Source of the DNA: Chloroflexota bacterium
GTDB lineage: Bacteria > Chloroflexota > Dehalococcoidia > UBA2247 > RBG-13-53-26
Direction: 5' to 3'
Length of the DNA stretch: 64,000 bases
Assembly: GCA_026389585.1 (NCBI GenBank)
Contig: JAPLHP010000036.1
Span: forward strand, 41,366-105,365
Under the pieces are notes generated by a model, which was given only the letters and a program-made list of their open reading frames with translations, was not told the DNA's origin and did not search any database. Positions 38,859 through 60,921 of this stretch are shown in pieces; the stretch's first letter is position 1; each line of letters begins with the position of its first letter. The position numbers and the translations under genes are program-made.

Positions 38859-38910
38859 GAGTCATACACCAAGAAAATACTATGCAGAGAACAGCGTCGG
38901 CTGAGCCCGT

Positions 38911-39084: not shown

Positions 39085-39210
39085 ACAGACACCTCCTTGC
39101 CTGGTCCCTTATGGGTTGTCTACGTGACATATGGATGTATATTACTCTTCCTAAGAACAATTCTGCCAGTACCGCTCTGTAGGCCCGGATCGCGTTCTTG
39201 AATTCACTCG

Positions 39211-41976
39211 CTACCATGGCCGCATCAATGCTTCCCTCTTCGCAGCTCCGCTCAAGACCTGGGCACAGGACTCCCAGTCTGTGCGCTCGATTTTCTGATA
39301 ACGGATCTCGAACGGGTGCTTCTCAGGAACGGCATCAATGATGCGCTTGGCTTGCTCCTCCTCACCGATAGCAACGTCAATCCAGACATCTTCAAGTACG
39401 TCAGGAATCTGCCCAAACAGGCTAAATATACTCTGAAGCCTAATGGACAATAATTGGTGAACGCGATCCTCGACAGATCCCAAGTAGCGCATGTTGTAGA
39501 CGTATACAATATCGTTGAGCTGCCCGATACGCTGTATCCTACCTTTGCGTTGTTCGAGACGCGTGGGATTCCATGGAAGGTCCAGGTTGATGAGCGTGCC
39601 GAGTCTCTGAAGGTTCAGCCCCTCAGATGCGGCGTCAGTCCCGAGCAGGAGGCGGATCTGCCCATTACGCACGCCAGCCTTAATCTCCTCCCGGTCGACC
39701 GGCGTGAATGAGCCGTCCTTCCACATGCCGGATTTACCGCTGCCTGCGTAAATAGCGATTGGCTCGTCGGGGAAGTCAAGGACGAGTTCTTTGGCCAGCC
39801 ACTGCACTGAATCATAGTACTGGCTGAAGACGATGCACCCCTTATCGAGCCAGCTTCGCCCCCGGAGGCAATCAAGGACTACGGAGTACTTGGGGTCTCG
39901 CTCCTGATTGGCTTCAAGCGCCTTGACGAATCTTTCGAGCAATACCCGCTCCTCATCGGTCAGAGTCTTTAACGTGCTCAGGGATGCGGCAGGATTCTCA
40001 TCCTCGCTCTCCGCGTCCGAATCCAAGGTGAACGAGCCGAGGTCTCGCCACGACGCCAGCATGGTCTCGGCTGTGGCTTTGCCTGCCGCGATACTGCTGC
40101 CCACCCGGCGCAGGAGGAGCGTGCGAAGAAAACCTGAGCCCTTCATGCGGGCACCAAGCTGCCGACAGAACTCCTCAGCCAGTTGGTATGCATCTCTGAG
40201 GAAGAGGGGTAAGCGGATGGCATCCTCGTCGCGATCCCCTAGAAGTTCGACACGGATCGGTTTTAGGTACGGCTCGCCGGTTTCAGGGTCGATTGTCTCC
40301 TCAAGATACTTGCGGCTCCGCCGTACGATATGGCGGATGAACGGATTATGCTGGTCAACAAAACGAGGGAACATGGCGTGCACACGGGCCTTGTCGGGAG
40401 GATTAAGACGGTCCCAATCGCTGCCGCCGGCAGACACTTCCATGTCGGTCATTCCCAGCGACCGACGCAGGATCTCGAAATCTCGATGCTCGGAGGATGG
40501 GGGTAATGGTGTGCGGACCCATTGCCACATGTCCAGTTCATCCTCCAGCTGTCTCGCCGTGCCCAGTACCAGCGGCAGGGCTCTTTCGGCATGGTGCCAC
40601 TCACTCCATGCGCCACCAAGGACAGCCTCGCTACCACGGCTCAGGATGTCAAGGAGATCCCAAGCCTCCACAGGGCGGATCTGAACGGGTGTCGCAGTCG
40701 CCAGGAGCATGCTCTTGGTGTGCTTTGACAGTTCATAGAGGAATTGAAGCAAGTTGTTCGGATCAGGTTTCTCCCCGTCACGACCTTCGCCCAAGTTTCG
40801 ACGGCGGGCGTTGTGTGCCTCGTCAACGATGATGCATTCATAGTCAAGGTGTTTGAGGTGCTCAGAATCCTCGCACTGAAAGACGGCCCTTGAAGTAGGA
40901 ACAATGCCAACGCGCCGCGGACAATTGCGTATTGCCTGGGGACCAACAGAAGGGTACTCGACACCGCGCTCATCCACCCATTGCTTCCCTGTCCATACGG
41001 CGGAGGGCATGTCAAGCAGGTCGTTGAGCTCATCCCGCCACTGCCAGACAAGCGCTTTCGGTGCGAGCACCAGGATTGGTTTGGTGCTGCATAGGGCCAT
41101 CAGCTCAGCCGCCATGGCGAGCTGAATGGTCTTGCCAAGGCCGACCTGGTCGGCGAGAACAAATCGCGCTCCTCCGGGGCTATTGAGATGTGCATCGAAC
41201 GCCAGCTTCACGAAGAACTTCTGGTGCTCCCAGAGACCCGCCTGCTGACGATAGACCGATGCCTCGATAAAGACCGATGCAGGTGTTGGAGCCACTGGCA
41301 ACGTGCCTGAGGGCCTCGCCCAGTCCTCCACCGAACTTATGACAGAGCGTTTGCTGAGGCGAGCGACATCTTCGATGACAAATTCCGCAAGCGGCACCGC
41401 GGCATGGTGAGTCCATAGGGCATCAAACTCTTCTTGGACCCAGGCCACAGCCTCCGGCGATGAGTCTTCCCACAGAAGTTCGTAATTCAGTGTCCATGCT
41501 GACCGTGATTCATTGACGCTGCCCAAGAAGGCAGTGCGACTCCCATCAGCAAGCATGATTACCCCGGCCTTGCCGTGAACGAGCCCGAAGTACTCATCCG
41601 GGAGCACTCTCACTTGTAGCTTCCCGCTGCGCAGGAACTCGTGAAGACGCGAAAAGCGGTTACGAGTTGCCTCTCCCCCAGATTCGACCAGCGTCTCGGG
41701 ACGCGAGCTACACCACTCCTGTCGAACGGCTGCAGCGGCGGCTCGAGCTGTGGCAACGTCTTGAGGTCGCAGCCCCGAGTTGCACACGATGCGTACAAGT
41801 CCGGTCACGCTCTCAATGGCTTCGCCAGCCACCTCAAGGATAGATCCGGAGAAGTATCCGGCGATGCGGTCATAAGCTTGCGCACCATGCAGGCGGTCTG
41901 TGAAGAATGACCGGTCCAGTCGTTGCCGCCTGGAGGAAAAACGCCGAATTTGGCTGTGGGCAACAGGGTCGTTCAT
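39211..41976 (-). CDS. PLD-family nuclease domain fused to SNF2/DEAD-like helicase
   Basis: N-terminal HKD motif (HGKAGVIM...GSVNES). Helicase motifs: Walker A GLGKT, DEAH box IIVDEAHNARR, C-terminal helicase motif LLLGTDAASEGLNLQ, motif VI QRKGRIQRIGQ. Start taken at MNDPVAHSQ. Confidence 0.8.
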   Translation of the reverse strand: MNDPVAHSQIRRFSSRRQRLDRSFFTDRLHGAQAYDRIAGYFSGSILEVAGEAIESVTGLVRIVCNSGLRPQDVATARAAAAAVRQEWCSSRPETLVESGGEATRNRFSRLHEFLRSGKLQVRVLPDEYFGLVHGKAGVIMLADGSRTAFLGSVNESRSAWTLNYELLWEDSSPEAVAWVQEEFDALWTHHAAVPLAEFVIEDVARLSKRSVISSVEDWARPSGTLPVAPTPASVFIEASVYRQQAGLWEHQKFFVKLAFDAHLNSPGGARFVLADQVGLGKTIQLAMAAELMALCSTKPILVLAPKALVWQWRDELNDLLDMPSAVWTGKQWVDERGVEYPSVGPQAIRNCPRRVGIVPTSRAVFQCEDSEHLKHLDYECIIVDEAHNARRRNLGEGRDGEKPDPNNLLQFLYELSKHTKSMLLATATPVQIRPVEAWDLLDILSRGSEAVLGGAWSEWHHAERALPLVLGTARQLEDELDMWQWVRTPLPPSSEHRDFEILRRSLGMTDMEVSAGGSDWDRLNPPDKARVHAMFPRFVDQHNPFIRHIVRRSRKYLEETIDPETGEPYLKPIRVELLGDRDEDAIRLPLFLRDAYQLAEEFCRQLGARMKGSGFLRTLLLRRVGSSIAAGKATAETMLASWRDLGSFTLDSDAESEDENPAASLSTLKTLTDEERVLLERFVKALEANQERDPKYSVVLDCLRGRSWLDKGCIVFSQYYDSVQWLAKELVLDFPDEPIAIYAGSGKSGMWKDGSFTPVDREEIKAGVRNGQIRLLLGTDAASEGLNLQRLGTLINLDLPWNPTRLEQRKGRIQRIGQLNDIVYVYNMRYLGSVEDRVHQLLSIRLQSIFSLFGQIPDVLEDVWIDVAIGEEEQAKRIIDAVPEKHPFEIRYQKIERTDWESCAQVLSGAAKREALMRPW

Positions 41977-41983
41977 GGTCTCC

Positions 41984-44974
41984 TCATACGTTGTCCTGCC
42001 GGTTCCGTAACGCACCAGCTAGCAACGCCGCCGCCTCGGCATCCTTGTGCCAGTGAACCAACGAAGTGTGATGGCGCAGCGCTGCGAGAAACTCCAGTAT
42101 GTCGATCAGGCGGGCTCGGTTGCTGGCGTAGTCTTTGATCTCCGTGGTGAACCATGTGATGGCTTCGCGTGTGCTGTCCATTTCTGTGGTCATGAAGACT
42201 CCGAACAATGCGTGGCGCACTAATGTGTCGCCGAAGCCATCTCCACCAAGATCCTTACGGCCGAATTCGCTGGCGGTTTTGAGGCGAGTCTGGTTGGCCT
42301 TCGTGCTGGCCAGAAGCGGTTTGTACTCCCTGACGCCGAAGCCGCGGGCGAGTTCTTGATATACCCCATTTCGATACTCACCGTGGCTCTCCATCTCCAA
42401 ACCCTTGAGGTAAAGCCGCTCAACAGCGGCCAAAGATTTCCACAAATGCCTATCAATGCCACGTGGCACCAAGTGGTCGCAGGCGATGGCCACAGCCTTG
42501 CGGATGACATCTTCTACTGGCGATACTTCTCCGCGGGCGCGAGTGCGGGTAAGCTCGTAGTTGACATCTATCTCTTCGATATTCTTGGAGGTGAGCACGC
42601 GTAGGGCAGCAGCATAGGCGGCAAGCTGGTAGTCTGTGTCGGCAAAGCTGGGGTCTCTCTCGTCGTCCATGGCGAGCATCGAGTCGAGCTGGTGTCGGAC
42701 CTCTGTTTCGACCTCAGGGTACACTTCGTCAAGGAAAGATGCCCCCTGCGGGCTCTGCTTGCGGAGGATCAGCAGCACAGTGCCTTGCACATAGTTGCCT
42801 TCCTTAAGAGGTGAGGATGTCTCGGTGGCGATGCACCAAGCTGCGGTTACGCGCAGTCCTGCGGCCCACAGGATGAGAGCCAGATCAGCCCACACGCCAG
42901 CGTCCTGATGGGTGAACATAACAACCTGCAGGCCGTTGTCAGGCATGTGCTGAGCCATGTTGCGGTAGCAGTCGACCATCGCCTTGCGAAAGCTGTCGTC
43001 ACTGCCCTTCACCGCCAGAGCTCGTTTAGAATCTGCATACCATTCTGGAAAGAGTTTGACAAGGTGAGTCTCGTACCAAGCAAGGAAGTATTCGGAGAGT
43101 TCATCATATTGAATGGCATCACCGTACGGGGGATCGGTGATCCACAGATCAGATACGTAGCCGCACTGACGAGCGTCAAGTGCCAGCACTTTGCCGCTGC
43201 CCACCACTTGCGCCCGGTTGATTAGGGCCATCCAAGTTGTTTGGAGGGCTGGCAAAGGCCTGACCCCAAAGTTGGATAGAGTGTTCAAAGCTTGGTTGCT
43301 GAAAGTCTGTTCAGTCTTCTCATTTGCTGCATTGGAGTGCCAACGGCAAAGCCGTGAGTTCCAGTCACTGCACCGGCCTATTGCCAAGACAAGAGCTGCT
43401 TCTTCCGCCGGAGAAGCTCCGGCATCGGCCGCAGCAGCGGCAAGCAAGCCGTTGACGAGAAGTTGCCTCGGTGTGAAGAGGTGGTGCCAGTGTGTCCAGC
43501 CACGCGTCCGAATGGGCTCGTCTGTCTTCACGCCCGGCTCGATCCGGCGACTTGGGATGAAGCCCTTCTGCTGCCAGTCCGTAAAATGCTCCATCAGGAG
43601 ATCCAATACACGCTGCTCACGCGCAAGGTCCTTAGCTGTCGGTGAGCGATAGTACCGCGCGCTGTGCTCCTTCCCTCCCACGTCGGTCCAGGTGTCAACC
43701 CAGCGGATGCAGTATAGGCGCTCGCCGAAAACATCACCATCGCGTGGAACGATATCGCCATTCTCCCAGCCTCTGAGCAAGCTTCTACTCTCGCTGAAGG
43801 TTCCGCGTCCATCTCCCCGTATCGCGCGAATCGGGGTGGGGTGAGCTTTGCACTGCGGGCAAATCAGTTCTGATTCCTTGGCTGTACCTGCTCGGTGTGC
43901 GGCTTCCAGCGCCTCATCCAAGACGCCTTGGACTATCTCGAAATCATAGCAGCAACGCTTGTCATTTGGCACAAGGCGTGCAATCGTTCTGCTGCCCCTT
44001 CCAATAACCCAGGAGGATGCAAGCGGTATGCGCCAGTTGCACTCGGGACACGTGACCTCGACACAATACAAGTAGGCATCGGCCCGCCAGCGTCGGCCCG
44101 TTTTGGGATCAGGCTCGCTGTGTTCAATGCCCCATGCGGTCACTTGGCGATCAACTTGTTCGAAAACAGTTCGCTGGATTCTCTGGACTCCTTCTGCTAC
44201 CTTTGGCACACCCCCCACGATCTTCAACGCGGCCCACGTAAGCAGTGCCGCCACCGGGTTCAAGTCGCTGCCATAGGCCTCACAGCCAATGCGGGCCGCC
44301 TCAAAGGGAACCGACCCGCCACCACAAAAGCAGTCGCCCACCCGAGGGACATGGCCAAAGCGGTTCTGGCCAAGCTCGGCAACTAAGTCAGCAAGCGAGG
44401 CGGCATGGGTACCAAGATGGGCATTGATAATCCGCCACGATTCGGCAGATGGTCCATCAACTTGCTCCGGGCGGACGCAGTATTCCTGCTGTTCGTCGTA
44501 CGATAGGCCGAGGAAAACTCGATGCTGCAGCTCATCCTTCTCGTGGCTTGTAATGCCTTTCTTGAGTTTGGGTTCCGTATCCGTAGAGCCAAGGTCGAAG
44601 TAGCGGCTTTGATCTGTGGGCCCAAGACATCGAAACAACTTGGCCGCCGGTATGTTCTTTGACTTGCGGCCGAGCATTCCGTCTTCATCCATAGTCATCA
44701 GTCGTAGGAAGACTTCTCGGTCTCGGGCTGCGTCAGTAGTTGCGGGCAAGAGCAGACCCAGGATTGTGGCTCGGCAGAGCACAAGGGGTTTACGCCCCCA
44801 CCACTTCCCCAGGCCGGTCAAAGTCTGGCTCTGTTTTGCGGTCCGCTCAGCATAACTCTCCTTCGAGAGCTTCGAGACGGGAAACTGAGTCTCAATTAGG
44901 CATAGCTCGGAACGCTGGAGCGATGCCGTGTGTTGTGCCGTTTCTGTGACTGTGGTCGGCATGTCTCTATTCAT
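41984..44974 (-). CDS. DUF1156 (COG1743) Zn-ribbon-containing DNA amino-methyltransferase
   Basis: 996 aa. N-terminal ETQFPVSKLSKESYAERTAKQ...GKWWGRKP is DUF1156-like. SAM-MTase motif IV WITDPPYGD. Cys clusters CPEC...CPQC. Confidence 0.75.
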   Translation of the reverse strand: MNRDMPTTVTETAQHTASLQRSELCLIETQFPVSKLSKESYAERTAKQSQTLTGLGKWWGRKPLVLCRATILGLLLPATTDAARDREVFLRLMTMDEDGMLGRKSKNIPAAKLFRCLGPTDQSRYFDLGSTDTEPKLKKGITSHEKDELQHRVFLGLSYDEQQEYCVRPEQVDGPSAESWRIINAHLGTHAASLADLVAELGQNRFGHVPRVGDCFCGGGSVPFEAARIGCEAYGSDLNPVAALLTWAALKIVGGVPKVAEGVQRIQRTVFEQVDRQVTAWGIEHSEPDPKTGRRWRADAYLYCVEVTCPECNWRIPLASSWVIGRGSRTIARLVPNDKRCCYDFEIVQGVLDEALEAAHRAGTAKESELICPQCKAHPTPIRAIRGDGRGTFSESRSLLRGWENGDIVPRDGDVFGERLYCIRWVDTWTDVGGKEHSARYYRSPTAKDLAREQRVLDLLMEHFTDWQQKGFIPSRRIEPGVKTDEPIRTRGWTHWHHLFTPRQLLVNGLLAAAAADAGASPAEEAALVLAIGRCSDWNSRLCRWHSNAANEKTEQTFSNQALNTLSNFGVRPLPALQTTWMALINRAQVVGSGKVLALDARQCGYVSDLWITDPPYGDAIQYDELSEYFLAWYETHLVKLFPEWYADSKRALAVKGSDDSFRKAMVDCYRNMAQHMPDNGLQVVMFTHQDAGVWADLALILWAAGLRVTAAWCIATETSSPLKEGNYVQGTVLLILRKQSPQGASFLDEVYPEVETEVRHQLDSMLAMDDERDPSFADTDYQLAAYAAALRVLTSKNIEEIDVNYELTRTRARGEVSPVEDVIRKAVAIACDHLVPRGIDRHLWKSLAAVERLYLKGLEMESHGEYRNGVYQELARGFGVREYKPLLASTKANQTRLKTASEFGRKDLGGDGFGDTLVRHALFGVFMTTEMDSTREAITWFTTEIKDYASNRARLIDILEFLAALRHHTSLVHWHKDAEAAALLAGALRNRQDNV

Positions 44975-44988
44975 GGTTCATCCCGAGT

Positions 44989-45732
44989 CTATTGAGAGCG
45001 GCTCGAATCTGACCCAAAGCCCAGCTGATTCGCCGCTTTTGCTCGCCGCGTTTTCCGTGACTTCCTGGCACTCCCTGTTGAGCTATGGGCTGTGCCCTCT
45101 TGAGCTGTAAGCTGGTCGGATTCGCTCATTGACTGGCTCACTAAGCGGAAGAACTCTGGCACAATCGGCTGATCGGGAGGACGGTCAGAGACCGGGTTCT
45201 CAGTCAGGGCAAATCGCACTGCCTTGCGCCAACCTCGCCCTCGGCCATCGGCGTAGCTGCCGGTAGCCGCCGCCGTCATGGTGTATAGCCACCAGCGCTC
45301 CTCGGGTGTCAGTCCCCGCCAGTTGGCGACCGCCGTAGGTATGAGGGCAGGGTCAGCATCTTCAAGAGCCCAGGTGAGGAGGGTCAGTTCTTTACCCAGC
45401 ATGCGGCTAACCGTATTGTAACCAGCTTTCCAGCGCCCCGGACGTTTGCCCTCTCTCTTGAGGCGCAAGTTGAACTCCGCGCGCACCAAGTCGGCGACTG
45501 CGTTCCATTTCGGCCGATCAAGTTGGCTTTTCACCTGGCCATCAAGACGCTCACCGTAGTGAACCGAATCGGCGATGCGATCGGGATCCCACGACAGATG
45601 TTCACTGATTGTGATGGGTTGCGTCGTGCCAGCAGGAATGTGAACCAGGAAATGGGAAACTGACTGGTTGGGGTCAAAGCCGAAAGTGTCGACAAGCACG
45701 TCCGGACTAGGTTTCTGGTTACGTTCAGCCAC
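44989..45732 (-). CDS. DUF3780-like protein (inferred from position between DUF499 and DUF1156 genes)
   Basis: 247 aa. Position and size match the DUF499-DUF3780-DUF1156-helicase arrangement predicted in defense islands. Family call relies on synteny, not verified motifs. Confidence 0.45.
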   Translation of the reverse strand: MAERNQKPSPDVLVDTFGFDPNQSVSHFLVHIPAGTTQPITISEHLSWDPDRIADSVHYGERLDGQVKSQLDRPKWNAVADLVRAEFNLRLKREGKRPGRWKAGYNTVSRMLGKELTLLTWALEDADPALIPTAVANWRGLTPEERWWLYTMTAAATGSYADGRGRGWRKAVRFALTENPVSDRPPDQPIVPEFFRLVSQSMSESDQLTAQEGTAHSSTGSARKSRKTRRAKAANQLGFGSDSSRSQ

Positions 45733-48700
45733 TATTGCCTCACCTCTGAAGCCTGATAGTCGGTCTTGTTCTCATTGATCCAGTCGAGGAACCCCTGCCC
45801 GCGCTCAAAGTGGAGGGCCGATACCTCGATACCGAGTTGACCTTCGTTGGTGAGCTTGCGGACGGCATCGGCGGCCTCCCGCAGGGCATCCGCACCAAGT
45901 TGGATCTTCTCATGCAGAGTGAGCTCAGCCCAACGGTTGCCCGTCACGCTGACCTTGATTCCACTCATGGACATGGGATGAGCCTTCAGTCTCTCCAGGA
46001 AACCATACGACTCGAGCGTGGTGTTAAACTCATGACGCCTGGTCCACGTCAGGGGTCTATCGGGGTCAATTTGCTTGTCCGTGTCGGGTCTGTCCCAAAG
46101 TATCTCGGCAGTCAACACTTCCGAGACGACGTCGCCGTGCATCGCTACCGCCAGGACGAACCGCGTGCCACGATGGACCTCGAAAGGCTCCTCGTAAGTA
46201 CCACCGGAAACCTTGGGGTCTGAGCCATCCGTGGTGTACTTGATCTCGGTGCGCCCGTCCTTGTTGGGGGCAGCTCGGAGCTCAACAATCTTGTTCCCTC
46301 TCTTGCCCGCGTAGGTCTTGTATTTCAAAGTCAGGCGGTTGCGCCACTTGTGATCCGGGCCAGAAGCATGCGTTCGCGTAGAATCCACGGCCAGAAACGA
46401 GACCTCCATTTCGCTCGTTCGATAAAGACCCTGCTCGACCTTCTGGGAGGCTTCCGTCGCATCAGCGCCGACTTCGGCGTACACAGTGTCGCCGTGCACA
46501 GGCGTAACCTTCAACTCCACCTCTCCAGTATCTTCATGGCGTGAGCGCTCCTGTATCTGCACCGAAGTGGTCTTGGGTGGTGGTGGGTTCCGGTCAACGT
46601 AGCCCGCCGGATCCTCGCGCCAGACCTCACGGTATACAAGATCATCCTTGATAGCATCGAGCGCCTCGCGACGGTGCCACTGCCACTGAGGGTTCATGGC
46701 AGCACGTCGCTTGACTTCGCTCCACAACATAACGGGTGTCGTAAACAGACGCGCTTCAATCTTCTTGCGGAATGTATCGCTCGTAACGTCTTCGGTGTAC
46801 TTCTGCTTGTCCTTCAAGACCTGGATGACCTGGTCCTCGCCGTTGTACTTGTTCCCCTCGTACTTCATCAGGAAGTCAGCAGAAAGGAAGACATCCGTAT
46901 CATTTTGACGGAAGGGGTAGTACAGAGTCGAGAATGTCTCTTTGACCGCTGAGAGGAACTGGCCCAGAATGCGATCCCGGAGTTCATCTGCCTGCTTGAA
47001 CTGAGGGTCCGTCTGAGGAGTCTTGTCCGCCTCCATTTCGTCGAGAATATGTTGGATAGCCTTGAGCCGCTTGGCGCTGTCGATTAGTGTGTCGAAGGTA
47101 TTGCGCGAACCCGTCAAGACGGCGATACGATTCTTGAAGGGAGTCTGCCCGTAGAATTGGACGAGTTGGGGGTTCAGACCCTGGCCAACGTAGGGCTCGG
47201 AGATGACGAGAGAGATGCGATCCTGGAACACTTGAATCTCGTCGATGGACGGCAGCACCAGTACTTCCTGATAGCACCAGCCCATCGGCGGTTTGAAAAG
47301 GGTCTTGAGGCGCTCTCTGAGTTCTTTCAATGCCTGTTCTCGGACATATGCAGTGGACAGCGACTCCAGCTTCGCGACGAGGTTCTGGACGTTCTTGAAG
47401 AACAGCCTGCCGTCACGATTGGAGTGGAGGTACCAGGCTGCAGTGGCAAGCTTCTCGAGAATATCGCTCTTGAGACGGGCCAGATTCCTACCGGGCGCGC
47501 AGAGGTAGCCCACCACTTCCGGGATGGTTAGGCCGACAACAGCATTCGGGACATTGGCCAGCGAAGACATGAAGATGAGCCGACATGCGTCCTGCGTGTC
47601 ATTCGTGCCCAGGTTCTGATCCATGACTTCGGCGACTGCTTTCCCCTGAGATGCAATATCGTGGGCCACGGCGTTGTCCAGTGTGGGGTTGATCTGGCGG
47701 ATTTCCGACAGGGTCTCGGGGTCGTTCAAGTCTATGTTGTGCACGCCAATGAGATACACCTTCTCCGCTTCCCCCGATTGCCACAGTCGCGAGGTGATGA
47801 TGCGCATCAGGCGGATCAGTGCACGGGTCTGCTGGAATCCGGGATTTTCACGAAAGCGTGCATACAGGTCTTTGATCGAAGGGTGGAACGGGTAACTGTC
47901 TTGGATGAACTGCGCAAACTTCTCTGGCGACTGGGCCGTAATGTCCATCTGTCGCGCCTCGCGGATGGCCTTGGCATATGCTTGGGCGACCTCTGTCACC
48001 TCCTCGTTTGGTGGCAGGTCCTTGAACAGGCGCTTCCGCAGGATGTGATAGAACTCATCTGTGTTGATTTGAACCGGCGTCAGGTTCATCGAGTGCCTTT
48101 GGGCCTCGCTCTGAAGCTGCTTCAGCAGGTCGGCGATCTGGGCACTAGCTTCGGCATAAGTGCCGACAAGGTCAGTCAGCACGATGCACACGTTGGCTAG
48201 CTCTTTCTCTGCGACTGCTTCGAAAAGGTTGGTCAGTGCTGTGGCCGTGACGTGCGAAAGATCTGAGTTGCCGACGGCGATTGACTTGGCGTTATCGAGG
48301 TAAGGTGGCAGTTCGTCGAGGAGTATCAGGGTAGGCTTGCCTTTGAGCAGGTTTATCCAGGCTGAGCGGCCCGGAGCCTTCAGCGGCGAATAGTAGTCCT
48401 TGAAGTCGGCATGTCTACCTATCTGACGCGCTATCTCTCCCCAGATACCGTGTGGAACGTCGGTTTCGCGGCCTGAGAAGGCAATGACTCGCACGGGTGG
48501 CAGCGCCTTCGCGCTTGGCAGTCCGGGCAGAACAGCTGCACGGAGTTCCGGATGCTTCGCCAACAGGCCAAGAGTGATGAGGTTATGTGTCTTGCCCCCA
48601 CCCATCGCCTGGGTGAGTTTGAATACTGCCTGCTCCGAACGACCCTCAAGTCGCCGGAGGGCCTCCATAAGCAGAGTTCGCATCCCGTCCGTGACATAGT

Positions 48701-48833
48701 TCTCTTCGAGGAAGGCCCTAGTGTCGATCTTGTCTTCGGCCAGATGCATCAGGTTGAGAACGGTGTCGCGACGAGCCGCGTCGAAGACGCTCTCGCGTGG
48801 TGTGCATAGGGTCTTGATCGATTTCATTTGCAC
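45732..48833 (-). CDS. DUF499 / BrxC-PglY-like P-loop ATPase
   Basis: 1033 aa, Walker A AMGGGKTHNL near the N-terminus, Walker B ILLDELPP. Size and architecture match DUF499. Confidence 0.7.
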   Translation of the reverse strand: MQMKSIKTLCTPRESVFDAARRDTVLNLMHLAEDKIDTRAFLEENYVTDGMRTLLMEALRRLEGRSEQAVFKLTQAMGGGKTHNLITLGLLAKHPELRAAVLPGLPSAKALPPVRVIAFSGRETDVPHGIWGEIARQIGRHADFKDYYSPLKAPGRSAWINLLKGKPTLILLDELPPYLDNAKSIAVGNSDLSHVTATALTNLFEAVAEKELANVCIVLTDLVGTYAEASAQIADLLKQLQSEAQRHSMNLTPVQINTDEFYHILRKRLFKDLPPNEEVTEVAQAYAKAIREARQMDITAQSPEKFAQFIQDSYPFHPSIKDLYARFRENPGFQQTRALIRLMRIITSRLWQSGEAEKVYLIGVHNIDLNDPETLSEIRQINPTLDNAVAHDIASQGKAVAEVMDQNLGTNDTQDACRLIFMSSLANVPNAVVGLTIPEVVGYLCAPGRNLARLKSDILEKLATAAWYLHSNRDGRLFFKNVQNLVAKLESLSTAYVREQALKELRERLKTLFKPPMGWCYQEVLVLPSIDEIQVFQDRISLVISEPYVGQGLNPQLVQFYGQTPFKNRIAVLTGSRNTFDTLIDSAKRLKAIQHILDEMEADKTPQTDPQFKQADELRDRILGQFLSAVKETFSTLYYPFRQNDTDVFLSADFLMKYEGNKYNGEDQVIQVLKDKQKYTEDVTSDTFRKKIEARLFTTPVMLWSEVKRRAAMNPQWQWHRREALDAIKDDLVYREVWREDPAGYVDRNPPPPKTTSVQIQERSRHEDTGEVELKVTPVHGDTVYAEVGADATEASQKVEQGLYRTSEMEVSFLAVDSTRTHASGPDHKWRNRLTLKYKTYAGKRGNKIVELRAAPNKDGRTEIKYTTDGSDPKVSGGTYEEPFEVHRGTRFVLAVAMHGDVVSEVLTAEILWDRPDTDKQIDPDRPLTWTRRHEFNTTLESYGFLERLKAHPMSMSGIKVSVTGNRWAELTLHEKIQLGADALREAADAVRKLTNEGQLGIEVSALHFERGQGFLDWINENKTDYQASEVRQ

Positions 48834-49247: not shown

Positions 49248-50600
49248 ATGGAAGTGAGAGATCCTCTGTACGGTTTGGTGGAGTATGGGACAGATGAAGA
49301 GAAGATAATAAACAGCATCGTACTTCAGAGGTTGCGAAACATAAAGCAGCTTGCATTGGCTAGCGCTGTCTATCCTGGTGCACATCACTCGAGGTTTGAA
49401 CATAGTATTGGCACCATGCATTTGGCTGGGATGGTAGCGAAGAGGCTGGGGCTAGAAGCGGAAAGGCCTGTTCTGCGACTCGCTGGACTGCTGCATGATG
49501 TTGGGCATGGGCCGTTCTCTCATGTCTCTGAACAAGTTATGGAGGGATATGCAAGTGACATCATGGCCAAATATCATGCAGATGGCGTACACGAATTGAT
49601 CAGTATGATGCTTATTGAGAGGCTTGGCAGCTTGGCAGGAGTGACACTCGAAAGCGGTGTTACATCCGGGATATGCGAGCTTCTCAAGAAACAACCTAGA
49701 AGGTCTTTGCAGCAAGGCATCATCTCGGGTCCGTTGGATGTCGACAAACTTGACTATCTTCGGAGGGATAGCTACTTCGCCGGGGTTCAGTACGGAGCCT
49801 TTGATCTCGATAAGGTGATTCATAGCCTCACCAGGATAAGGATCAGTAGTGAAGAAGAACAACTAGGTTTTCATGAGGAGGGTGTCCATGCAGTTGAACA
49901 GCTCCTACTTGCAAAGTACCACATGAATGTGCAGGTCTATCAGCATAGGATTAGGCGCATAACTGATGCAATGCTGGTTAGTGGCATTAGGTTTGCCTTA
50001 GAGGAAGGAGTTGGTGAAGTCCAAAGGCTTTTCACTGTGGAGGATTCTGATGCTTACCTGCAGTACTATATCTCGAACAATGATAATACTCTCATGGACA
50101 CAGTCCTACAGAAAGGCAAGGAAGGGTCGAGAGAGCTGTTTCAGCGCATAAAGGAGCGCAAACTTCTGAAACAAGTGTTTTCACTCGAGATAAGCAGAGA
50201 CAACTTTCCAGACGCAGTTCAGATGGACAACATATTGCGCTTGTCTGATGCACAATTGCACCAGATAGCACAACGGGCAGTGGAACTCTATTCTGCAACA
50301 GATAGCAGGCTGGATCCAAACCTGGTCATAGTGGACAAACAGACCATCTCTAATCCAACCTTCAAATCACCTCAGACCAGCATTGATCAAGGCACGATAA
50401 TGGTAAAGACGAAGTCTGGACAGAGAAAGGCTTTCCCAGACATATCCACTATCTTTCGGAACCCTAGCATAGATCCCAAAGTCGAGGTTCTCTACGTCTA
50501 CTTGCCTCTGGATTGGCTCGGAAGCAAGGGGGACAGGGATGCGTTCATCAACCAAAGATATGATACAATGGCTGAACAAGTGATGGAGGTGGTCAAATGA
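49248..50600 (+). CDS. HD-domain phosphohydrolase of the dGTPase/SAMHD1-like family
   Basis: HSRFEHSIGT...LLHDVGHGPFSH...DKLDYLRRDSYFAGV motifs of dNTP triphosphohydrolase-type HD proteins. Confidence 0.75.
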   Translation: MEVRDPLYGLVEYGTDEEKIINSIVLQRLRNIKQLALASAVYPGAHHSRFEHSIGTMHLAGMVAKRLGLEAERPVLRLAGLLHDVGHGPFSHVSEQVMEGYASDIMAKYHADGVHELISMMLIERLGSLAGVTLESGVTSGICELLKKQPRRSLQQGIISGPLDVDKLDYLRRDSYFAGVQYGAFDLDKVIHSLTRIRISSEEEQLGFHEEGVHAVEQLLLAKYHMNVQVYQHRIRRITDAMLVSGIRFALEEGVGEVQRLFTVEDSDAYLQYYISNNDNTLMDTVLQKGKEGSRELFQRIKERKLLKQVFSLEISRDNFPDAVQMDNILRLSDAQLHQIAQRAVELYSATDSRLDPNLVIVDKQTISNPTFKSPQTSIDQGTIMVKTKSGQRKAFPDISTIFRNPSIDPKVEVLYVYLPLDWLGSKGDRDAFINQRYDTMAEQVMEVVK

Positions 50601-51196
50601 GATTGGACGATCTCGTCATACTGACGCTGCATTTCAGCGACAACAAGATGATTGCTGGTCGGACCCTCCTACAAAAGACCCTCTACTTCCTTAACGCAAA
50701 GCTTAATCTGGGCGTGGAATTTGCGTCTCACTACTATGGTCCCTATTCCTCCGACGTTGCTGAGTCAATTGCCCGTCTGAATTCTGCTGGTATTCTGGAG
50801 GAAAGCATTGAGTACCTCCAACCGCTGAGTTTTGGAGTGACTTTCGAGCCCAGAAGGTTTACATACAGGCTTACAGACACTGGAAAGAGCATAGCAGAGA
50901 TTGCCGAAAGACGGAATGAGACCGAAGCCGAAGCGATCAAGGGAATCCTTGATCGCATGAAGAATCTAGGCGTTGTGGATGACTACAAGAGCCTGTCTAT
51001 TGCAGCAAAGATGCACCGTATATTGAAGATCGAGAAGAAACCTATGACAGCCTCGCAGGTTCTGGAAGAGGCCAAAGCCTTAGATTGGAGAATAGAAAAG
51101 GGAGATGCTGATGGAGCAGTGGTTTTTCTCAAGGGGATGGACTTAGTCATGGAATTCGAGCATCCTGCTGCAGCGAATACAGCAACCACGGCTTGA
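50597..51196 (+). CDS. Panacea (DUF4065/SocA-like) domain protein, putative antitoxin
   Basis: LLQKTLYFLNAKLNLGVEFASHYYGPYSSDV matches the DUF4065 core (L.KLLYf...g..l....f.aw.yGPv...vy). ATGA overlap with the HD gene. Confidence 0.55.
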   Translation: MRLDDLVILTLHFSDNKMIAGRTLLQKTLYFLNAKLNLGVEFASHYYGPYSSDVAESIARLNSAGILEESIEYLQPLSFGVTFEPRRFTYRLTDTGKSIAEIAERRNETEAEAIKGILDRMKNLGVVDDYKSLSIAAKMHRILKIEKKPMTASQVLEEAKALDWRIEKGDADGAVVFLKGMDLVMEFEHPAAANTATTA

Positions 51197-51576
51197 GTTG
51201 CAAGTAAGCCTCCAGTTGAAATTGTGTTGATCTTGAACTAGTGATGACCTGTGTTAGGGGTCGGTTGCGCCTACACGCAGGACATTGAAGTCCATCCTCG
51301 GGCTTCTATGAGTTGACAAGACCACCCCACCAAGTGCATCCATTAGGAAGTCCTTGTATATTGGCATGCCATATTCCACATCGTCACGCGCTGTCTCTCA
51401 AGAGATGCTCCTTTCGGAGCAGCGACAGGGTCATTGGGTAATGCCAGTCTTTGGATGAAACAGGCTTCCGCAGGCTGGGTGTTGACCAGAAGGAGACAGA
51501 TTTGATCCTAGAAGAGATTACTGGGTAAGCCGAAATACGTGGATTCAGAAGCATAACGTTCTACATCCCCCACTGA

Positions 51577-51690
51577 GATTGCTTCGCTGCGCTCGCAATG
51601 ACACCGGCGGCTAACCCGCAATGACACCAGCGGCCAACCGGAATGACACGGCACACAAACCCCTGAGCCATAAGCGAGAAGAAATACGAT
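51577..51690. repeat. dispersed repeat family copy C (head plus three ~22-bp GCAATGACACCGGCGGCTAACC units)
   Basis: GATTGCTTCGCTGCGCTCGCAATGACAC head, then tandem units as in 55764-55975. Confidence 0.65.
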
Positions 51691-51727
51691 ATGTTCGGAG
51701 ATGTTTCCTAGCCATGGGTCAGCCCCA

Positions 51728-52228
51728 TTAGTCATGGGCCAGGCGGCGTATCGTTGCGTTTATGGAGTTGCTCTCACCTTGGGTGATCAAGCCGTCACGG
51801 ACCGCCAGCTTCAACAGGTCTCCTGTACCAAAGACAGCAATAGATAAACTCACAGCCTTACATGCTTCGCGTGCAAGGCCATCATCTGTCGCTATATCGT
51901 AGCCCCTGTTGCAGGCGATGGCTATTGACGCGGATTCGCCCAGCCCCAGCCTCCTTCCAAGGAGCAGGTTAGCATATATCGAGATTTCTTCCCCGGAGGA
52001 TTCATCAAGAGTAACCACGCAGATGGTACCGTCAACCTGCATCTGTGTTAGAAGAGCTATGAGATATTGCCCTCTACCGGGCCAGCGTGAGGCTTCCTGA
52101 AGGACCTGGCCGGTGATGCAGAAAGTGCCCTTTGGCCAGATTCCCAGCACTCGAGCTAGAGCTCCGGCAGAATACAGTCTTGAGACAACGTCGTTATCGA
52201 GGACAACAGGTCTGTTGAAAGGCGACAT
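51728..52228 (-). CDS. PIN-like domain protein (DUF4411-like), putative toxin partner of ImmA/IrrE
   Basis: 166 aa. N-terminal VVLDNDVV plus downstream acidic residues fit a PIN fold. ATG directly follows the ImmA stop. Confidence 0.5.
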   Translation of the reverse strand: MSPFNRPVVLDNDVVSRLYSAGALARVLGIWPKGTFCITGQVLQEASRWPGRGQYLIALLTQMQVDGTICVVTLDESSGEEISIYANLLLGRRLGLGESASIAIACNRGYDIATDDGLAREACKAVSLSIAVFGTGDLLKLAVRDGLITQGESNSINATIRRLAHD

Positions 52229-53377
52229 TCAGGCATCGCCTTCCTTACTTTCTCCACTAAGCTCGTCTCTGAGTTCGTAGTAGTTCCTCCTCAGGAGTTC
52301 GGCCAGCTTCTCAAATGAGACAAGTTTCGCCTTGTAAGCCTCGTATGCCAGATATTTGTAATGACGAGGAAGCATGTCAGGGGGATCCTCTCTGTCACAA
52401 TATCCCAGCAGGATGGCGATAGGTGATGTGGTGACTCGTTGAGTCATAATGCCTTGCCATCTGGAAAGCGAGAGCTTCCTGAGAGATACCAACCTCCAGC
52501 CGGTTGCTTCAAAGCTGGTGCCGAAATAAGTCGCTAGATGAAAGACGACCTCAGCCGTTGGGGCAGTTGTCTGTTTGGATACAAACTGGCTCAACATCTC
52601 ATTCATGGCGCGTCTGGGCATCAGGAAAGCAGCGGCAAATGCATTGGCGAAACGTTCGTGAGGACGCCGTGTCACAAATCCAGTGTCGGTGTCAATGTGA
52701 GCATGGGCTAACTGATTCCGATGGGCAATGCAGTGCCCATACTCGTGTGCCACAGTAAATGTGCGCCTCCGCTGAGGATGAAGTGAGTTGATTAGCAAGC
52801 AGGCGCCAAGGTCCTTGTCACACGCAAAAGCGCCGGAGAACCCTTGTGATTCCTCCGGCAGGTGAAATATCTTCACCCCCCTCTTCTTTTCCAGTAAGTC
52901 GCAAATATCCTTTATGGGCTGACTATCAAGGCCCATTGAGCTTCGCTCAGCCACTGCCAGGTCTTCGGCCTGTTCCAGTGTTGTTGGAGAAGCACTTGAG
53001 TAGTCAGGCGGCCCCGGCATCTCTGGCGCTCCCACGAGCTGCATCAGGTCTCGGTAGTCTTTGCATAAGTCTTGAAATCCGATGATTGTCTCCCGGGGAA
53101 CAGCTGCTGCTGAAGCAGCTCGGAGTAGAACGGAGAAGCAGGCACTGGACTCGTCCTGGTCAAAGAAGAAGGTCAGGGGACGATGATATAACTTGGCGAA
53201 CTTGTATAACTCTACGGCCGAGACACGTCGCTTCTGACTCTCAATGTCTGAGACGGTGGATGTTGCGAGGCCCATACTCTCGCCGACCTGGCTGAGAGTG
53301 AGTCCCAAGGCTGTTCTGGCTTGCCTCAGCATACGGCCGACTGCGACAGGCAAATCCGTCGTTGCACTAACAACCAT
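52229..53377 (-). CDS. XRE-HTH + ImmA/IrrE-family (COG2856) zinc metallopeptidase
   Basis: N-terminal HTH (LGLTLSQVGESMGLATSTVSDIESQKR). HExxH motif HEYGHCIAH. Confidence 0.75.
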   Translation of the reverse strand: MVVSATTDLPVAVGRMLRQARTALGLTLSQVGESMGLATSTVSDIESQKRRVSAVELYKFAKLYHRPLTFFFDQDESSACFSVLLRAASAAAVPRETIIGFQDLCKDYRDLMQLVGAPEMPGPPDYSSASPTTLEQAEDLAVAERSSMGLDSQPIKDICDLLEKKRGVKIFHLPEESQGFSGAFACDKDLGACLLINSLHPQRRRTFTVAHEYGHCIAHRNQLAHAHIDTDTGFVTRRPHERFANAFAAAFLMPRRAMNEMLSQFVSKQTTAPTAEVVFHLATYFGTSFEATGWRLVSLRKLSLSRWQGIMTQRVTTSPIAILLGYCDREDPPDMLPRHYKYLAYEAYKAKLVSFEKLAELLRRNYYELRDELSGESKEGDA

Positions 53378-53489
53378 GTTTGCCCTCCTTCAGCCGACTT
53401 CGGAAAAGTACAACATTATTGGATTCGAGAGCATTTTATCACACGAATTTTCGGAGGTCAACATTTGTTGCATTGCGCCAGAGGCACAT

Positions 53490-53629
53490 AGCAGCCGTTC
53501 CTGTCACTTCAGGGCGGCGACGACTTTATTGGTTTGTCTTTCTAAGGCTTCCAAGGAAGACTCGTTGGTGATAGTGAAGTCTGCCATGGCGATGGGCCCA
53601 CCTTTGTTGAGCTCCTGTATCTCCATCGC
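53490..53629 (-). pseudogene. diverged remnant of the 3' end of the UPF0200 kinase gene (att-like scar)
   Basis: Encodes MEIQELNKGGPIAMADFTITNESSLEALERQTNKVVAALK, ~88% nt identical to the 3' end of 58694-59236 including 14 bp past the stop. Starts right at the AbiEii stop. Confidence 0.7.
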
Positions 53630-54523
53630 TCAATTTCCTTCTGAATCGGTTTCGGCTCTTGCGGGAAAGAGTTCCTTCAGGGCTGACATAAATTCATCAA
53701 GCTGCAAACCGGGGCGATAATAAGGGCTTTCCCTCAATCGGATCATGCCCGGATGGTCGAGGGCGGAGAAGTGTTTCAAGACCAGACGTCCTGCCTCCAT
53801 AATGTATGGATCGTCTCCGTACTGATGGCGCAATTCAAGGGCATGTTTCCACTCCGTCTCCATGGTCGTCGCCAGGATGGTGTACATATCCAGGGCATGG
53901 TAGCGACCGAATTCCTTGTTGGCATCGTTGAGCCGGTCCTTGAAGGCGAATAGTTTCATCATCAGGAACGTGTAGGGTTGCGGAAGAAAGACCTCAGCTT
54001 GCCAGGGCTCGCCTGAACTGAGTTTCCCATTCAGCGTTTCCGGCAACAGCCCTTCTTCCAACGTCGGAACTTCGTCGACGGGATGGGCGTGAATGCCAAC
54101 GGAAGGATCGGGCCGGGCACGGCGGGTGTCCGTTTTCACCCGTGTGCCCTCAAAACGGCTTTGCGGACCGGTAAGGATGTCTATCTTGACGCTGCCTGCC
54201 TGAGCGCCTCCAGGACCGAGCTTCATAAACTGGTATTTCTCTGCGCCGCGAACAACCTTATAGCCCAGCCTGGCAATGGCCTCTGCCAGTGGTTTCAATT
54301 TTGCTGACTGGATGAGCAGTTCCGGACGTAGAAACAAATCAAGGTCGTTGGTGGAACGTGCTTCAGGCCATTCACGGAAGAGTGTTGGCGCACCGAGGCG
54401 GCGCACGTAATCGGCCTTGAGGTAGATGCCAAAACCGCCGCCAATGATGAGTCTGATATCCGCGCCTTGCACTTCGTAGAGCAGATCGAGCAACGCCGTT
54501 TGAAGGTCGGGGATCGTGATCAT
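53630..54523 (-). CDS. AbiEii/DUF1814-like nucleotidyltransferase (type IV TA toxin family)
   Basis: 297 aa, NTase motif IIGGGFGIYL...NDLDLFL. Overlaps the upstream gene by 4 nt. Confidence 0.55.
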   Translation of the reverse strand: MITIPDLQTALLDLLYEVQGADIRLIIGGGFGIYLKADYVRRLGAPTLFREWPEARSTNDLDLFLRPELLIQSAKLKPLAEAIARLGYKVVRGAEKYQFMKLGPGGAQAGSVKIDILTGPQSRFEGTRVKTDTRRARPDPSVGIHAHPVDEVPTLEEGLLPETLNGKLSSGEPWQAEVFLPQPYTFLMMKLFAFKDRLNDANKEFGRYHALDMYTILATTMETEWKHALELRHQYGDDPYIMEAGRLVLKHFSALDHPGMIRLRESPYYRPGLQLDEFMSALKELFPARAETDSEGN

Positions 54524-55671
54524 TGCTGCTCTCGGTGAAGATTCACCAAGAGGAACGACTTCACCTGTTCGGCAGTCTCCCGGTCACGCTTGTCGCCGGC
54601 CATCAACTCCAAATACACCTGCACAGGGGAGGCCCACCAGAAGTTTCCCTCCTGCCGGGCATCGAAGTAGACCGTTTCATCCTCTGTCTCGACGACTTCA
54701 AGGTTCGGGAAGCGATCCGACTGACTCCCAGACAGCCGCTCCAGCAGCATCTCCAAACGCGGGCAGTAGACAGAGAACAGATCCCCTCGCTGCATCACGG
54801 CATATTGCGCCACCGATGATGTCCCTGCAGCCACAAGGGGCAGGCCCAATTCCAGCGACTGCTTTTGCAGCGATTCCCGGATCGTTCCGTTCCCTTCCGA
54901 GACTTTGAGGCGGACTCGCTCCCTGATTTTCGGAGGGACATAGTTGTCACTCAGTTTTTCCAGAAGTTTGTCGGGTTGCAGCAGGCAAATGGTACTCTTG
55001 CGCTCGACGACCAAATCCTCCCCCAACGTCTTCAACACTTTCGACACCGTCGACAGGCTCATGGGCCTCGTAGCCCAACGGTTCACCAGCATGTTTCGCC
55101 GGTTGATCTCGGCGCAAATCTCTTGAACGGTGTCGTAGCTGGAACGGGCGAGGAAGACCCTGCCAACCATGGAACTGTTCTTCCGATAGATGTTCTTGAT
55201 CGGTGCTGAGGAGGAAAAACAGTTCTTCTCGCCGCTGCGGAACAGGGCAAACATGCCCGGCACAACCACCACGCCGTTACCGCACAGGTCTATGCCGCTG
55301 ATGCCTTCCCGCTCCAGCTCCTGCAGTTGCCGTTCACTGAGGAAAGGCATGATAAGCATAGGCCGGTAGCTCTTCGGGAGCGACAATAGTTTCAGCAGGT
55401 TGAGCCCATCCTGAAACGCCTTGGGCGTCGATAGGGATTTGCATTCGACGGCGAACTTTGCCGTGCTCTCACGCCATGATACCTCAATCAATGCATCGAG
55501 GCGACGGTTTCCGCCTGCTTCAGGCTGACTCTCCAGGAAGCGAAAAGACAGCGGAGGCAGTGAGACTTTACCTCTCCGAAGCTGTTCAATCATCTCCCTC
55601 TCTGTTGTCATTTTCCTGATGCTTTTCATTTTCCTAAACAAGAAAATAGCAGTTTTTAGGAAAACATGCAA
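54520..55671 (-). CDS. putative AbiEi-like antitoxin/regulator (hypothetical)
   Basis: 383 aa, upstream of and overlapping the NTase gene as in AbiEi/AbiEii pairs. No motif verified by eye. Confidence 0.35.
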   Translation of the reverse strand: MHVFLKTAIFLFRKMKSIRKMTTEREMIEQLRRGKVSLPPLSFRFLESQPEAGGNRRLDALIEVSWRESTAKFAVECKSLSTPKAFQDGLNLLKLLSLPKSYRPMLIMPFLSERQLQELEREGISGIDLCGNGVVVVPGMFALFRSGEKNCFSSSAPIKNIYRKNSSMVGRVFLARSSYDTVQEICAEINRRNMLVNRWATRPMSLSTVSKVLKTLGEDLVVERKSTICLLQPDKLLEKLSDNYVPPKIRERVRLKVSEGNGTIRESLQKQSLELGLPLVAAGTSSVAQYAVMQRGDLFSVYCPRLEMLLERLSGSQSDRFPNLEVVETEDETVYFDARQEGNFWWASPVQVYLELMAGDKRDRETAEQVKSFLLVNLHREQQ

Positions 55672-55679
55672 GTCTTATC

Positions 55680-55763
55680 TTACGGGTTACGGCTCAGGGC
55701 TGCGATGACTTTATTGGTTTGCCTTTCCAGGGCTTCTAGAGAGGATTCGTTGGTGATAGTCGA
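55680..55763 (-). pseudogene. second remnant of UPF0200 kinase gene 3' end
   Basis: Encodes ...TITNESSLEALERQTNKVIAALSRNP. Closer to the 53490 remnant than to the intact gene. Confidence 0.65.
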
Positions 55764-55975
55764 GATTGCTTCGCTGCGCTCACAATGACACCAGCGGCTA
55801 ACTGCAATGACACTGCGGCTAACCAGCAATGACACCGGCGGCCAACCAGCATGACACGGTGACCAACCGGAATGACACAGTGGGCAATATGCCACCATGA
55901 CACTCATGCAGTTTGTCACCCTGAGCGAAGGCGAAGGGTCTCCCCTCACAAAGCGAATGACGCCTATTCCTGCAT
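55764..55975. repeat. dispersed repeat family copy D (longest tandem array)
   Basis: GATTGCTTCGCTGCGCTCACAATGACAC head, ~6 tandem 21-23-bp CAATGACACNGCGGCTAACC units, GTCACCCTGAGCGAAGGCGAAGGGTCTCCCCTCACAAAGCGAATGACGCCTATTCCTGCA tail shared with copy A. Confidence 0.7.
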
Positions 55976-60871: not shown

Positions 60872-60921
60872 GATTCTTCGCTGCGCTCAGAATGACACCC
60901 ATTTCTGCCACCAAGCACTAG
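60872..60921. repeat. dispersed repeat family copy E (50-bp miniature: head + tail only)
   Basis: GATTCTTCGCTGCGCTCAGAATGACAC joined to ...CCAAGCACTAG, matching the head and tail of copy A (7225-7460). Confidence 0.6.

Follow-up and report, generated by a model that had tools for sequence, protein, structure and literature searches.

Two genes that touch stop codon to start codon in the genome of a Chloroflexota bacterium raise the question of whether they act together as a toxin–antitoxin (TA) pair and, if they do, how the toxin would be held back and set free. They occupy positions 51,728 to 53,377 of a 64,000-nucleotide stretch of DNA (NCBI GenBank assembly GCA_026389585.1, contig JAPLHP010000036.1, positions 41,366 to 105,365 of the forward strand), and this whole stretch is called the window here. 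The first gene encodes an XRE-type helix-turn-helix (HTH) domain fused to an M78 metallopeptidase (XRE-M78), and the second encodes a small PIN-fold nuclease. The pair is best understood as a two-gene operon of the 'HTH-Zn-peptidase antitoxin plus toxin' class, probably an autorepressed, Rosmer-like TA or abortive-infection module in which a PIN ribonuclease (RNase) is released by the peptidase. This reading draws on the domain make-up of the proteins, both sets of catalytic residues, the constant pairing of the genes, the coupling signals between them, the promoter with its operator-like boxes and the location in a defence island.

A repressor-peptidase fusion and its PIN partner

The genes and the domains of the larger product are as follows.

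53377..52229, minus strand: fusion gene of an XRE-type HTH and an M78 (ImmA/IrrE, COG2856) zinc peptidase; 382 aa, ATG start
53165..53329, minus strand: HTH DNA-binding domain, residues 17-71 (Pfam HTH_3, E 1.3e-11, and HTH_31)
52490..52888, minus strand: M78 metallopeptidase domain, residues 164-296 (Peptidase_M78, PF06114, E 1.2e-21)
52721-52747 and 52655-52657, minus strand: zinc motif HEYGHCIAH and third zinc ligand E241, within the M78 domain
52228..51728, minus strand: PIN-fold nuclease gene (COG2405/DUF3368-like, PDC-S70-related), predicted toxin/effector; 166 aa, ATG start

An earlier note on this DNA, made from the sequence alone, had placed two minus-strand open reading frames (ORFs) here in stop-ATG contact, and both the ORF list and the raw sequence agree with it: the junction reads ...GAT GCC TGA ATG TCG..., with 0 nt between the XRE-M78 stop and the PIN ATG. 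Both are real genes and not chance ORFs, because many homologues of each occur in metagenomes and metagenome-assembled genomes (MAGs), the 166-aa protein having 64 of them (best E 4e-97) and the 382-aa protein over 200 (best E 3e-252). The same note had read the upstream product as an XRE-HTH::ImmA/IrrE fusion carrying HEYGHCIAH. This holds, with HTH_3 and Peptidase_M78 both matched, the latter at 77.2 bits against a Pfam gathering cutoff of 22, and with the motif FTVAHEYGHCIAHRNQ at residues 211-219 (nt 52747-52721). The HExxH...E zinc site is intact, and H211, E212, H215 and E241 are invariant among 30 homologues with identity down to 38%.

The 382-aa protein is laid out in four parts, namely the N-terminal XRE HTH, a helical linker, the M78 domain, which also contains an FLMP motif, and a helical C-terminal region. 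This last region, of about 80 aa (residues 300-380), is conserved and has no family match. Among the PADLOC models, 14 for RmrA, the Rosmer antitoxin, match the protein over residues 17-303 (best E 6.2e-29), and those for capP (E 2e-24) and capH (E 1e-5) match as well, while NCBIfam adds weak RamB and PuuR matches to the HTH. Sequence matches in the PDB are 9vzy_A (E 7e-8) and IrrE 3dte (E 1.8e-4). The former is the closest solved sequence, a 393-aa 'HTH cro/C1-type domain-containing protein' that matches XRE-M78 over the HTH as well as over the peptidase part; a paper describing 9vzy was not found in the literature. The AlphaFold2 model of the 382-aa protein has a predicted local distance difference test score (pLDDT) of 79.5. 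In Foldseek searches its HTH domain resembles those of ImmR, SinR, CapH and C-proteins (target TM 0.8-0.87), CapP 7t5t and DdrO are among the matches of the XRE-M78 model, and the full-length search of the three-domain model returned weak per-domain matches only. On these grounds the 382-aa protein is predicted to be an RmrA-like autorepressor and antitoxin/sensor.

The downstream protein is not named by sequence libraries. Pfam and NCBIfam gave nothing usable for it, the sole Pfam match being TPM_phosphatase at E 0.19. Its AlphaFold2 model, built from an alignment of 25 homologues, is of high confidence (pLDDT 94, predicted TM score 0.88) and has the Rossmann-like alpha/beta/alpha fold of PIN domains. 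Foldseek against the PDB ranks VapC toxins first (3tnd, E 1.3e-4, probability 1.0), and the best structural match is SSO1118 (2mdt), the structure by which Matelska et al. 2017 (PMC5499597) represent COG2405/DUF3368. Profile searches of PDB sequences yielded spurious vinculin matches only when the close-family alignment was used, and a weak match to the PIN protein 1o4w (E 0.002) only when the wide alignment was used.

Within the close PIN family no variation is seen at D11, N12, D13, E45, E98, D115 or D116. A wider, exhaustive profile search, run against 1.84 billion representative proteins, gave 608 relatives. When 62 of them, reaching down to about 22% identity, were aligned, G97-E98 proved invariant, and conservation was at least 90% at D11, E45, D115 and D116. 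In the model, these acidic residues are found where strand 1 ends, within helix 40-46, where helix 96-108 begins and beyond strand 111-113, the places taken by the catalytic residues of PIN domains. They also align by hhalign, at low probability, with D7, E42 and D98 of a single Shigella VapC sequence. The PIN catalytic acidic residues, the loss of which the earlier note had named as grounds for abandoning its claim, are therefore intact on alignment.

The family label given in that note fared less well. It had called the protein "PIN-like (DUF4411-type)", and the first part stands on the structure and the conserved acidic residues. The second part does not: DUF4411 (PF14367) is unmatched by the 166-aa protein even at E<=10, by any of 25 close relatives at E<=1 and by any of the 62 wider relatives at E<=0.01. 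With no family member matching PF14367, the DUF4411-type assignment was rejected. When the 62 relatives were scanned singly against Pfam, PIN PF01850 was found in 14 and DUF3368 PF11848 in 10 (best E 7e-8), and most close homologues bear a precomputed PF11848 label. The window protein itself falls below the Pfam thresholds for both families, PF11848 being unmatched. In PADLOC it matches the candidate PDC-S70 only, and partially (E 8.7e-8, residues 86-151), and its relatives in loci L006 and L007 match PDC-S70 models over almost their full length (L007, E 3e-10). Sequence and model together place the 166-aa protein as a PIN nuclease of the COG2405/DUF3368/PDC-S70 neighbourhood with intact active-site residues.

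Pairing across genomes and the signals of the operon

The earlier note had proposed a co-occurrence survey, and when the two window proteins were searched by tblastn against every locus fetched, a conserved co-occurring unit emerged. XRE-M78 lies directly upstream of PIN on the same strand in 15/15 distinct Chloroflexota-type loci, with a gap of 0-64 nt (0 nt in the window). A match just upstream of PIN is also present in 7/10 distant Actinomycetota loci, where PIN matches at about 38% over its C-terminal half and XRE at about 27%; of the three exceptions, the match in L021 is too near the contig start for an upstream gene and that in L028 covers 26 residues only. Searching outward from XRE-M78 relatives of 66, 53, 42 and 41% identity again led to a DUF3368-labelled PIN as the next gene. 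The pairing is thus obligatory across phyla, from Chloroflexota to Actinomycetota, and PIN is the partner kept without exception across the surveyed loci.

Identities of the two proteins fall in parallel (XRE/PIN 67/59, 56/53, 53/38 and 41/36%). The flanking genes are wholly different between loci and include tRNA synthetases, a hydantoinase, Prim-Pol, DXP synthase and dapB/asd, so that XRE-M78 and PIN move as a cassette; many of the loci sit amid housekeeping genes. Decaying copies are also present. In L009 (JAFNFZ010000080.1; 1145-2749) XRE-M78 is split over three frames by two apparent frameshifts and PIN is intact, at 70% identity to the window protein, and in L004 (5434-6486; the same as L005 and L016) XRE-M78 has been reduced to its C-terminal half and PIN to 151 aa.

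One further arrangement was seen in L001 (1613-6495; Chloroflexi MAG JACPQD010000068.1), in which two divergent XRE-M78/PIN-like cassettes face apart, separated by a DUF433 + PIN_10/DUF5615 pair and accompanied by an HD protein. The partner in the second cassette, of 183 aa, is PIN-like by hhalign (90.8%, E 1.2e-6) and has no Pfam or PADLOC match.

The signals that could control the pair are listed below.

53433..53461, minus strand: sigma-70-type promoter, TTGACC, 17 nt, TG-extended TAAAAT; 10/12 consensus matches
53449..53455, minus strand: box 1, TCCGAAA, candidate operator, directly abutting the -35 hexamer
53398..53404, minus strand: box 2, TCCGAAG, candidate second operator in the 5' leader, 51 nt downstream of box 1
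53383..53391, minus strand: Shine-Dalgarno sequence GAAGGAGGG, 5 nt before the XRE-M78 ATG; GGAGG is kept there in homologous loci
52239..52246, minus strand: Shine-Dalgarno-like sequence AAGGAAGG within the 3' end of XRE-M78, 10 nt before the PIN ATG

The internal Shine-Dalgarno-like sequence and the TGA-ATG junction together imply translational coupling of PIN, and the nine closest loci keep the junction motif AGGAAGGCRATGnnTRRATG, again with 0 nt between the genes. An intrinsic terminator after the PIN gene was not found.

For the promoter, the upstream regions of the 15 loci were aligned by start codon and box counts were compared with those of shuffled sequences. In most homologous loci TTGAC and the extended -10 are equally far from the ATG. 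Immediately after TTGAC, at -78 relative to the start codon, 11/15 loci have a YSCGAAA box, and a second one at -27, at a spacing of 51-52 nt, is kept in eight. In total there are 19 YSCGAAA boxes against 0.36 expected from shuffles, and eight loci have at least two boxes against 0.004 expected. The second-box consensus, ATTTCCGAAAT, is a 5+1+5 palindrome, and the remainder of the upstream intergenic regions is not conserved. From this sequence pattern we infer that the YSCGAAA boxes are candidate operators for the HTH domain of XRE-M78. The motif TTTCCGAAA is not enriched across the 64-kb window, where boxes occur at the cassette's own promoter only; autoregulation is therefore favoured, and a wider regulon in this region is unlikely. 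As far as could be found, the conserved operator-like boxes and the coupled junction had not been reported earlier for COG2856-Xre/PIN systems.

Proposed mechanism and its rivals

The architecture itself is already known, having been predicted in 2009, 2017 and 2023, and the cassette is ordinary for its class. PIN or RelE toxins are often encoded in one operon with a fused COG2856-Xre gene, and a three-component TA system was proposed for this arrangement (Makarova, Wolf & Koonin 2009, PMC2701414). HTH-DUF955 fusions were described upstream of COG2405 and DUF4411 PINs, with an example from Geobacillus (Matelska et al. 2017, PMC5499597), and in the NetFlax study of 2023 ImmA-node antitoxins pair with PIN-like toxins in a Rosmer/ImmA zone and RmrA was confirmed as an antitoxin (PMC10440598). 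In addition, an rmrA deletion could not be transformed (bioRxiv 10.1101/2022.05.11.491447), and one PDC-S70 PIN gave E. coli protection against T4, T5 and T7 (bioRxiv 10.1101/2024.09.26.614923).

The window pair shares features with each of these systems. Like the predicted COG2856(DUF955)-Xre + PIN 'three-component' TA systems, it has a fused HTH + M78 gene directly upstream of a co-directional small PIN-like gene; the two lie on the same strand less than 100 nt apart and recur in diverse genomes, as that prediction asks. The earlier systems are purely computational predictions. The window copy belongs to a Chloroflexota-centred clade and its PIN lies below the PF11848/PF01850 thresholds. With RosmerTA, the RmrT/RmrA anti-phage system (Millman et al. 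2022; PMC10440598), it shares the HTH + Zn-peptidase component (RmrA models, E 6e-29), the two-gene organisation and the defence island. It differs from RosmerTA in that its toxin is a PIN, known RmrT proteins being of unknown function or membrane-depolarising, in that its antitoxin gene comes first, and in that the last ~80 residues of the 382-aa protein lie outside the RmrA profile match.

Similarly, VapBC and the COG2405-UPF0175 pairs are small two-gene operons with an upstream gene in the antitoxin position and a PIN effector with acidic residues, and the structures nearest to the window PIN are SSO1118 and VapC. COG2405 PINs are normally paired with UPF0175 antitoxins (PMC5499597), whereas the partner here is a 382-aa enzyme-repressor fusion and not a small ribbon-helix-helix, AbrB, Phd or UPF0175 antitoxin, which implies signal-controlled proteolysis rather than passive antitoxin turnover. 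PDC-S70 is the candidate that the window PIN and its relatives match among the PADLOC models, but it is defined as a single gene, reportedly mostly archaeal (PMC12988326), and the window PIN is obligatorily paired with XRE-M78. Finally, CapH/CapP, ImmR/ImmA and DdrO/IrrE likewise combine an XRE-type HTH repressor with an M78 metallopeptidase expected to cleave the repressor on a signal. Those are two separate proteins regulating large operons (CBASS, ICEBs1 and DNA repair), whereas the window cassette has both functions in one polypeptide and the PIN gene as its sole cargo. The cassette is best filed as a predicted COG2856-Xre/PIN system that works like Rosmer.

By analogy with these systems, the following mechanism can be proposed. 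XRE-M78 would bind the two TTCCGAAA-type boxes, one abutting the -35 and the other 51 bp downstream, and so repress its own promoter. PIN would be made through translational coupling and held harmless either by limited expression alone or, more probably, by direct binding of PIN by XRE-M78 as well. A trigger, for which a phage product or nucleic-acid damage are candidates as for ImmA, IrrE and CapP, would activate the M78 peptidase, and this would cleave, in cis or in trans, the repressor/antitoxin part that bears the HTH. The PIN nuclease, derepressed or freed, could then cleave cellular or phage RNA and cause growth arrest, which would protect against phage as abortive infection.

A more specific version of this scheme is possible, if doubtful. 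It would make the family a distinct Rosmer-type subtype in which one polypeptide is repressor, sensor-protease and antitoxin at once, and in which a phage-induced self-cut between HTH and peptidase derepresses the operon and releases the COG2405-type PIN RNase. The boxes 51 bp apart would in that case be occupied by a looped or tetrameric repressor.

Several observations weigh against the Rosmer-like reading. The literature yields no experimental study of any XRE-M78/PIN pair or of the Rosmer mechanism, in line with the remark in the earlier note that such pairs are predicted and seldom characterised. RmrT models do not match the PIN protein in PADLOC even at E<=10, so that defence annotators would not call the cassette Rosmer. 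The window copy of box 2 carries one mismatch, and catalytic activity is believed to be impaired in certain members of COG2405, 2mdt among them (PMC5499597). If the frameshifts in L009 are genuine rather than the product of faulty assembly, cells can tolerate PIN in the absence of XRE-M78. In addition, 2.9 million viral contigs were scanned and contained no close relatives, nor is there a particular phage trigger to point to.

Chief among the rivals, though unlikely, is a switch that works by transcription alone, without protein-protein neutralisation. A self-cleaving, LexA-like repressor, or a fused form of ImmR-ImmA or CapH-CapP, would silence the PIN gene and never contact the PIN protein, which would be made only after a damage or phage signal. 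The conserved promoter with two operator-like boxes suits this well, as do the strong capP and capH model matches and the Foldseek matches to CapP, DdrO and ImmR. An intact PIN beside a frameshifted XRE-M78, as in L009, would be easier to tolerate if PIN needs coupled translation, and AlphaFold was unable to predict an RmrT-RmrA complex in NetFlax (PMC10440598). Coupling, however, would tie the synthesis of PIN to that of the repressor at all times, so that some post-translational control seems necessary. The conserved helical region at residues 300-380 could be the toxin-binding part, and the identities of XRE and PIN co-vary tightly, as expected of interacting partners.

An improbable alternative is a non-defensive stress regulon of the IrrE/DdrO or RamB/PrpR kind, in which the HTH-peptidase controls other genes and PIN is a specific, non-lethal RNA-processing or regulatory factor. 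The appearance of IrrE among the PDB sequence matches, the weak RamB and PuuR matches of the HTH, the embedding of many loci in housekeeping genes and the possible inactivity of some COG2405 PINs (PMC5499597) all speak for this alternative. Against it stand the restriction of the boxes to the cassette's own promoter, with no motif enrichment in the 64-kb window, and the strong conservation of the acidic active-site residues. Selfish or defence cassettes typically show what is seen here, namely a patchy distribution, changing neighbourhoods and copies in decay (L004/L005/L016 and L009), and the window copy lies within a defence island.

It is more improbable still that the peptidase is the toxin, with the M78 domain harmful, the fused HTH holding it in check and PIN an accessory. 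COG2856 was indeed listed as a predicted toxin and Xre as its antitoxin (Makarova et al. 2009, PMC2701414), and a Brucella ZnMP/HTH-Xre pair has been discussed likewise (PMC10538038). However, RmrA-type HTH-peptidases act as antitoxins (10.1101/2022.05.11.491447; PMC10440598), the PIN protein fills the toxin slot that COG2405 PINs have in UPF0175 pairs (PMC5499597), and it is PIN that is retained without exception.

Surroundings in the window and significance

The defence island to which the earlier note had assigned the pair is borne out by PADLOC defence genes nearby. The neighbouring genes are listed in order.

36942-38858, minus strand: GmrSD-like type IV restriction enzyme (PADLOC)
39211-42015, minus strand: PLD_helicase (PADLOC, E 1e-239)
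41984-44974, minus strand: DUF1156 methyltransferase (PADLOC, E 3e-291)
44989-45732, minus strand: DUF3780 (PADLOC)
45732-48833, minus strand: DUF499 (PADLOC, E 1e-208)
49248-50600, plus strand: HD-domain protein (HD + HD_assoc_2), weak PADLOC dGTPase match
50597-51196, plus strand: 199-aa gene with a 4-nt overlap with the HD gene; no Pfam match above threshold, no Panacea domain detected
53630-55671, minus strand: overlapping AbiEi-like (383 aa) and AbiEii-like (297 aa) genes, directly upstream of XRE-M78 on the same strand

The genes from 36942 to 48833 form a large defence operon on the minus strand. The label "HD-Panacea", which the earlier note had given to the neighbouring pair, could not be confirmed for the 199-aa protein: its sole resemblance, a weak one, is to the C-terminal part of DarG (PADLOC E 1e-6, NCBIfam E 1.8e-5). 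The AbiE-like matches are borderline (AbiEi_2, E 0.005; AbiEii, E 0.006-0.012). In L008 and L013 the XRE-M78/PIN cassette is likewise preceded by an AbiEi_2 + 282-aa gene pair. The idea that all four genes form a conserved syntenic block was rejected, since identity there is only 24% for the AbiEi-like protein and 66% for XRE.

The surroundings also contain repeats. A dispersed repeat consists of the core GCTTCGCTGCGCTCRSAATGACA followed by 22-nt tandem sub-repeats GCAATGACACCRGCGGCYAAC. It lies at 51575-51651, 55762-55878, 7228-7250 and 60875-60897, with four copies of the core in the window against 0.01 expected, and the two long copies, in the same orientation, flank the four-gene block AbiEi-like/AbiEii-like/XRE-M78/PIN (51575-55878). 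The downstream repeat has no special RNA fold (z 0.45) and no Rfam match. A reading of the flanking repeats as attachment (att) sites was rejected, the core being present at 7228 and 60875 as well.

A 76-nt direct repeat, 82% identical, was also observed at 53513-53596 (minus strand) and 55694-55769. The first copy, situated between the XRE-M78 promoter and the AbiEii-like gene, encodes a mini-ORF of 27 aa, MADFTITNESSLEALERQTNKVVAALK; the second precedes the AbiEi-like gene and is joined to the dispersed repeat. A homologue of the mini-ORF was not found among the fetched loci.

That the pair is the immunity or regulation module of an integrated mobile element or prophage, like ImmR/ImmA of ICEBs1, is the least probable explanation of all: M78-HTH modules are common in prophages (PMC2701414) and dispersed repeats flank the four-gene block, but there are no integrase, phage or conjugation genes beside the pair in the window or in the 15 related loci, no relatives in the 2.9 million viral contigs, and the repeat core recurs elsewhere in the window as a dispersed genomic repeat and not an att pair.

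HTH-M78 peptidase fusions beside toxins are among the commonest uncharacterised TA and defence architectures, and even RosmerTA still awaits an account of signal sensing by the peptidase and of toxin release. The XRE-M78/PIN family would be a reasonable experimental entry point. It is a compact, conserved pair with a high-confidence PIN model, it offers clear mutable catalytic residues in both enzymes, and it has a sharply defined promoter with two candidate operators. The cassette adds no new principle. What it adds is a correction of the PIN family (COG2405/DUF3368/PDC-S70, not DUF4411), the pairing from Chloroflexota to Actinomycetota and the conserved dual-box promoter. If the self-cutting, single-polypeptide reading were true, it would be the first mechanistic model for COG2856-Xre/PIN systems and would link them to the PDC-S70 PIN candidates.

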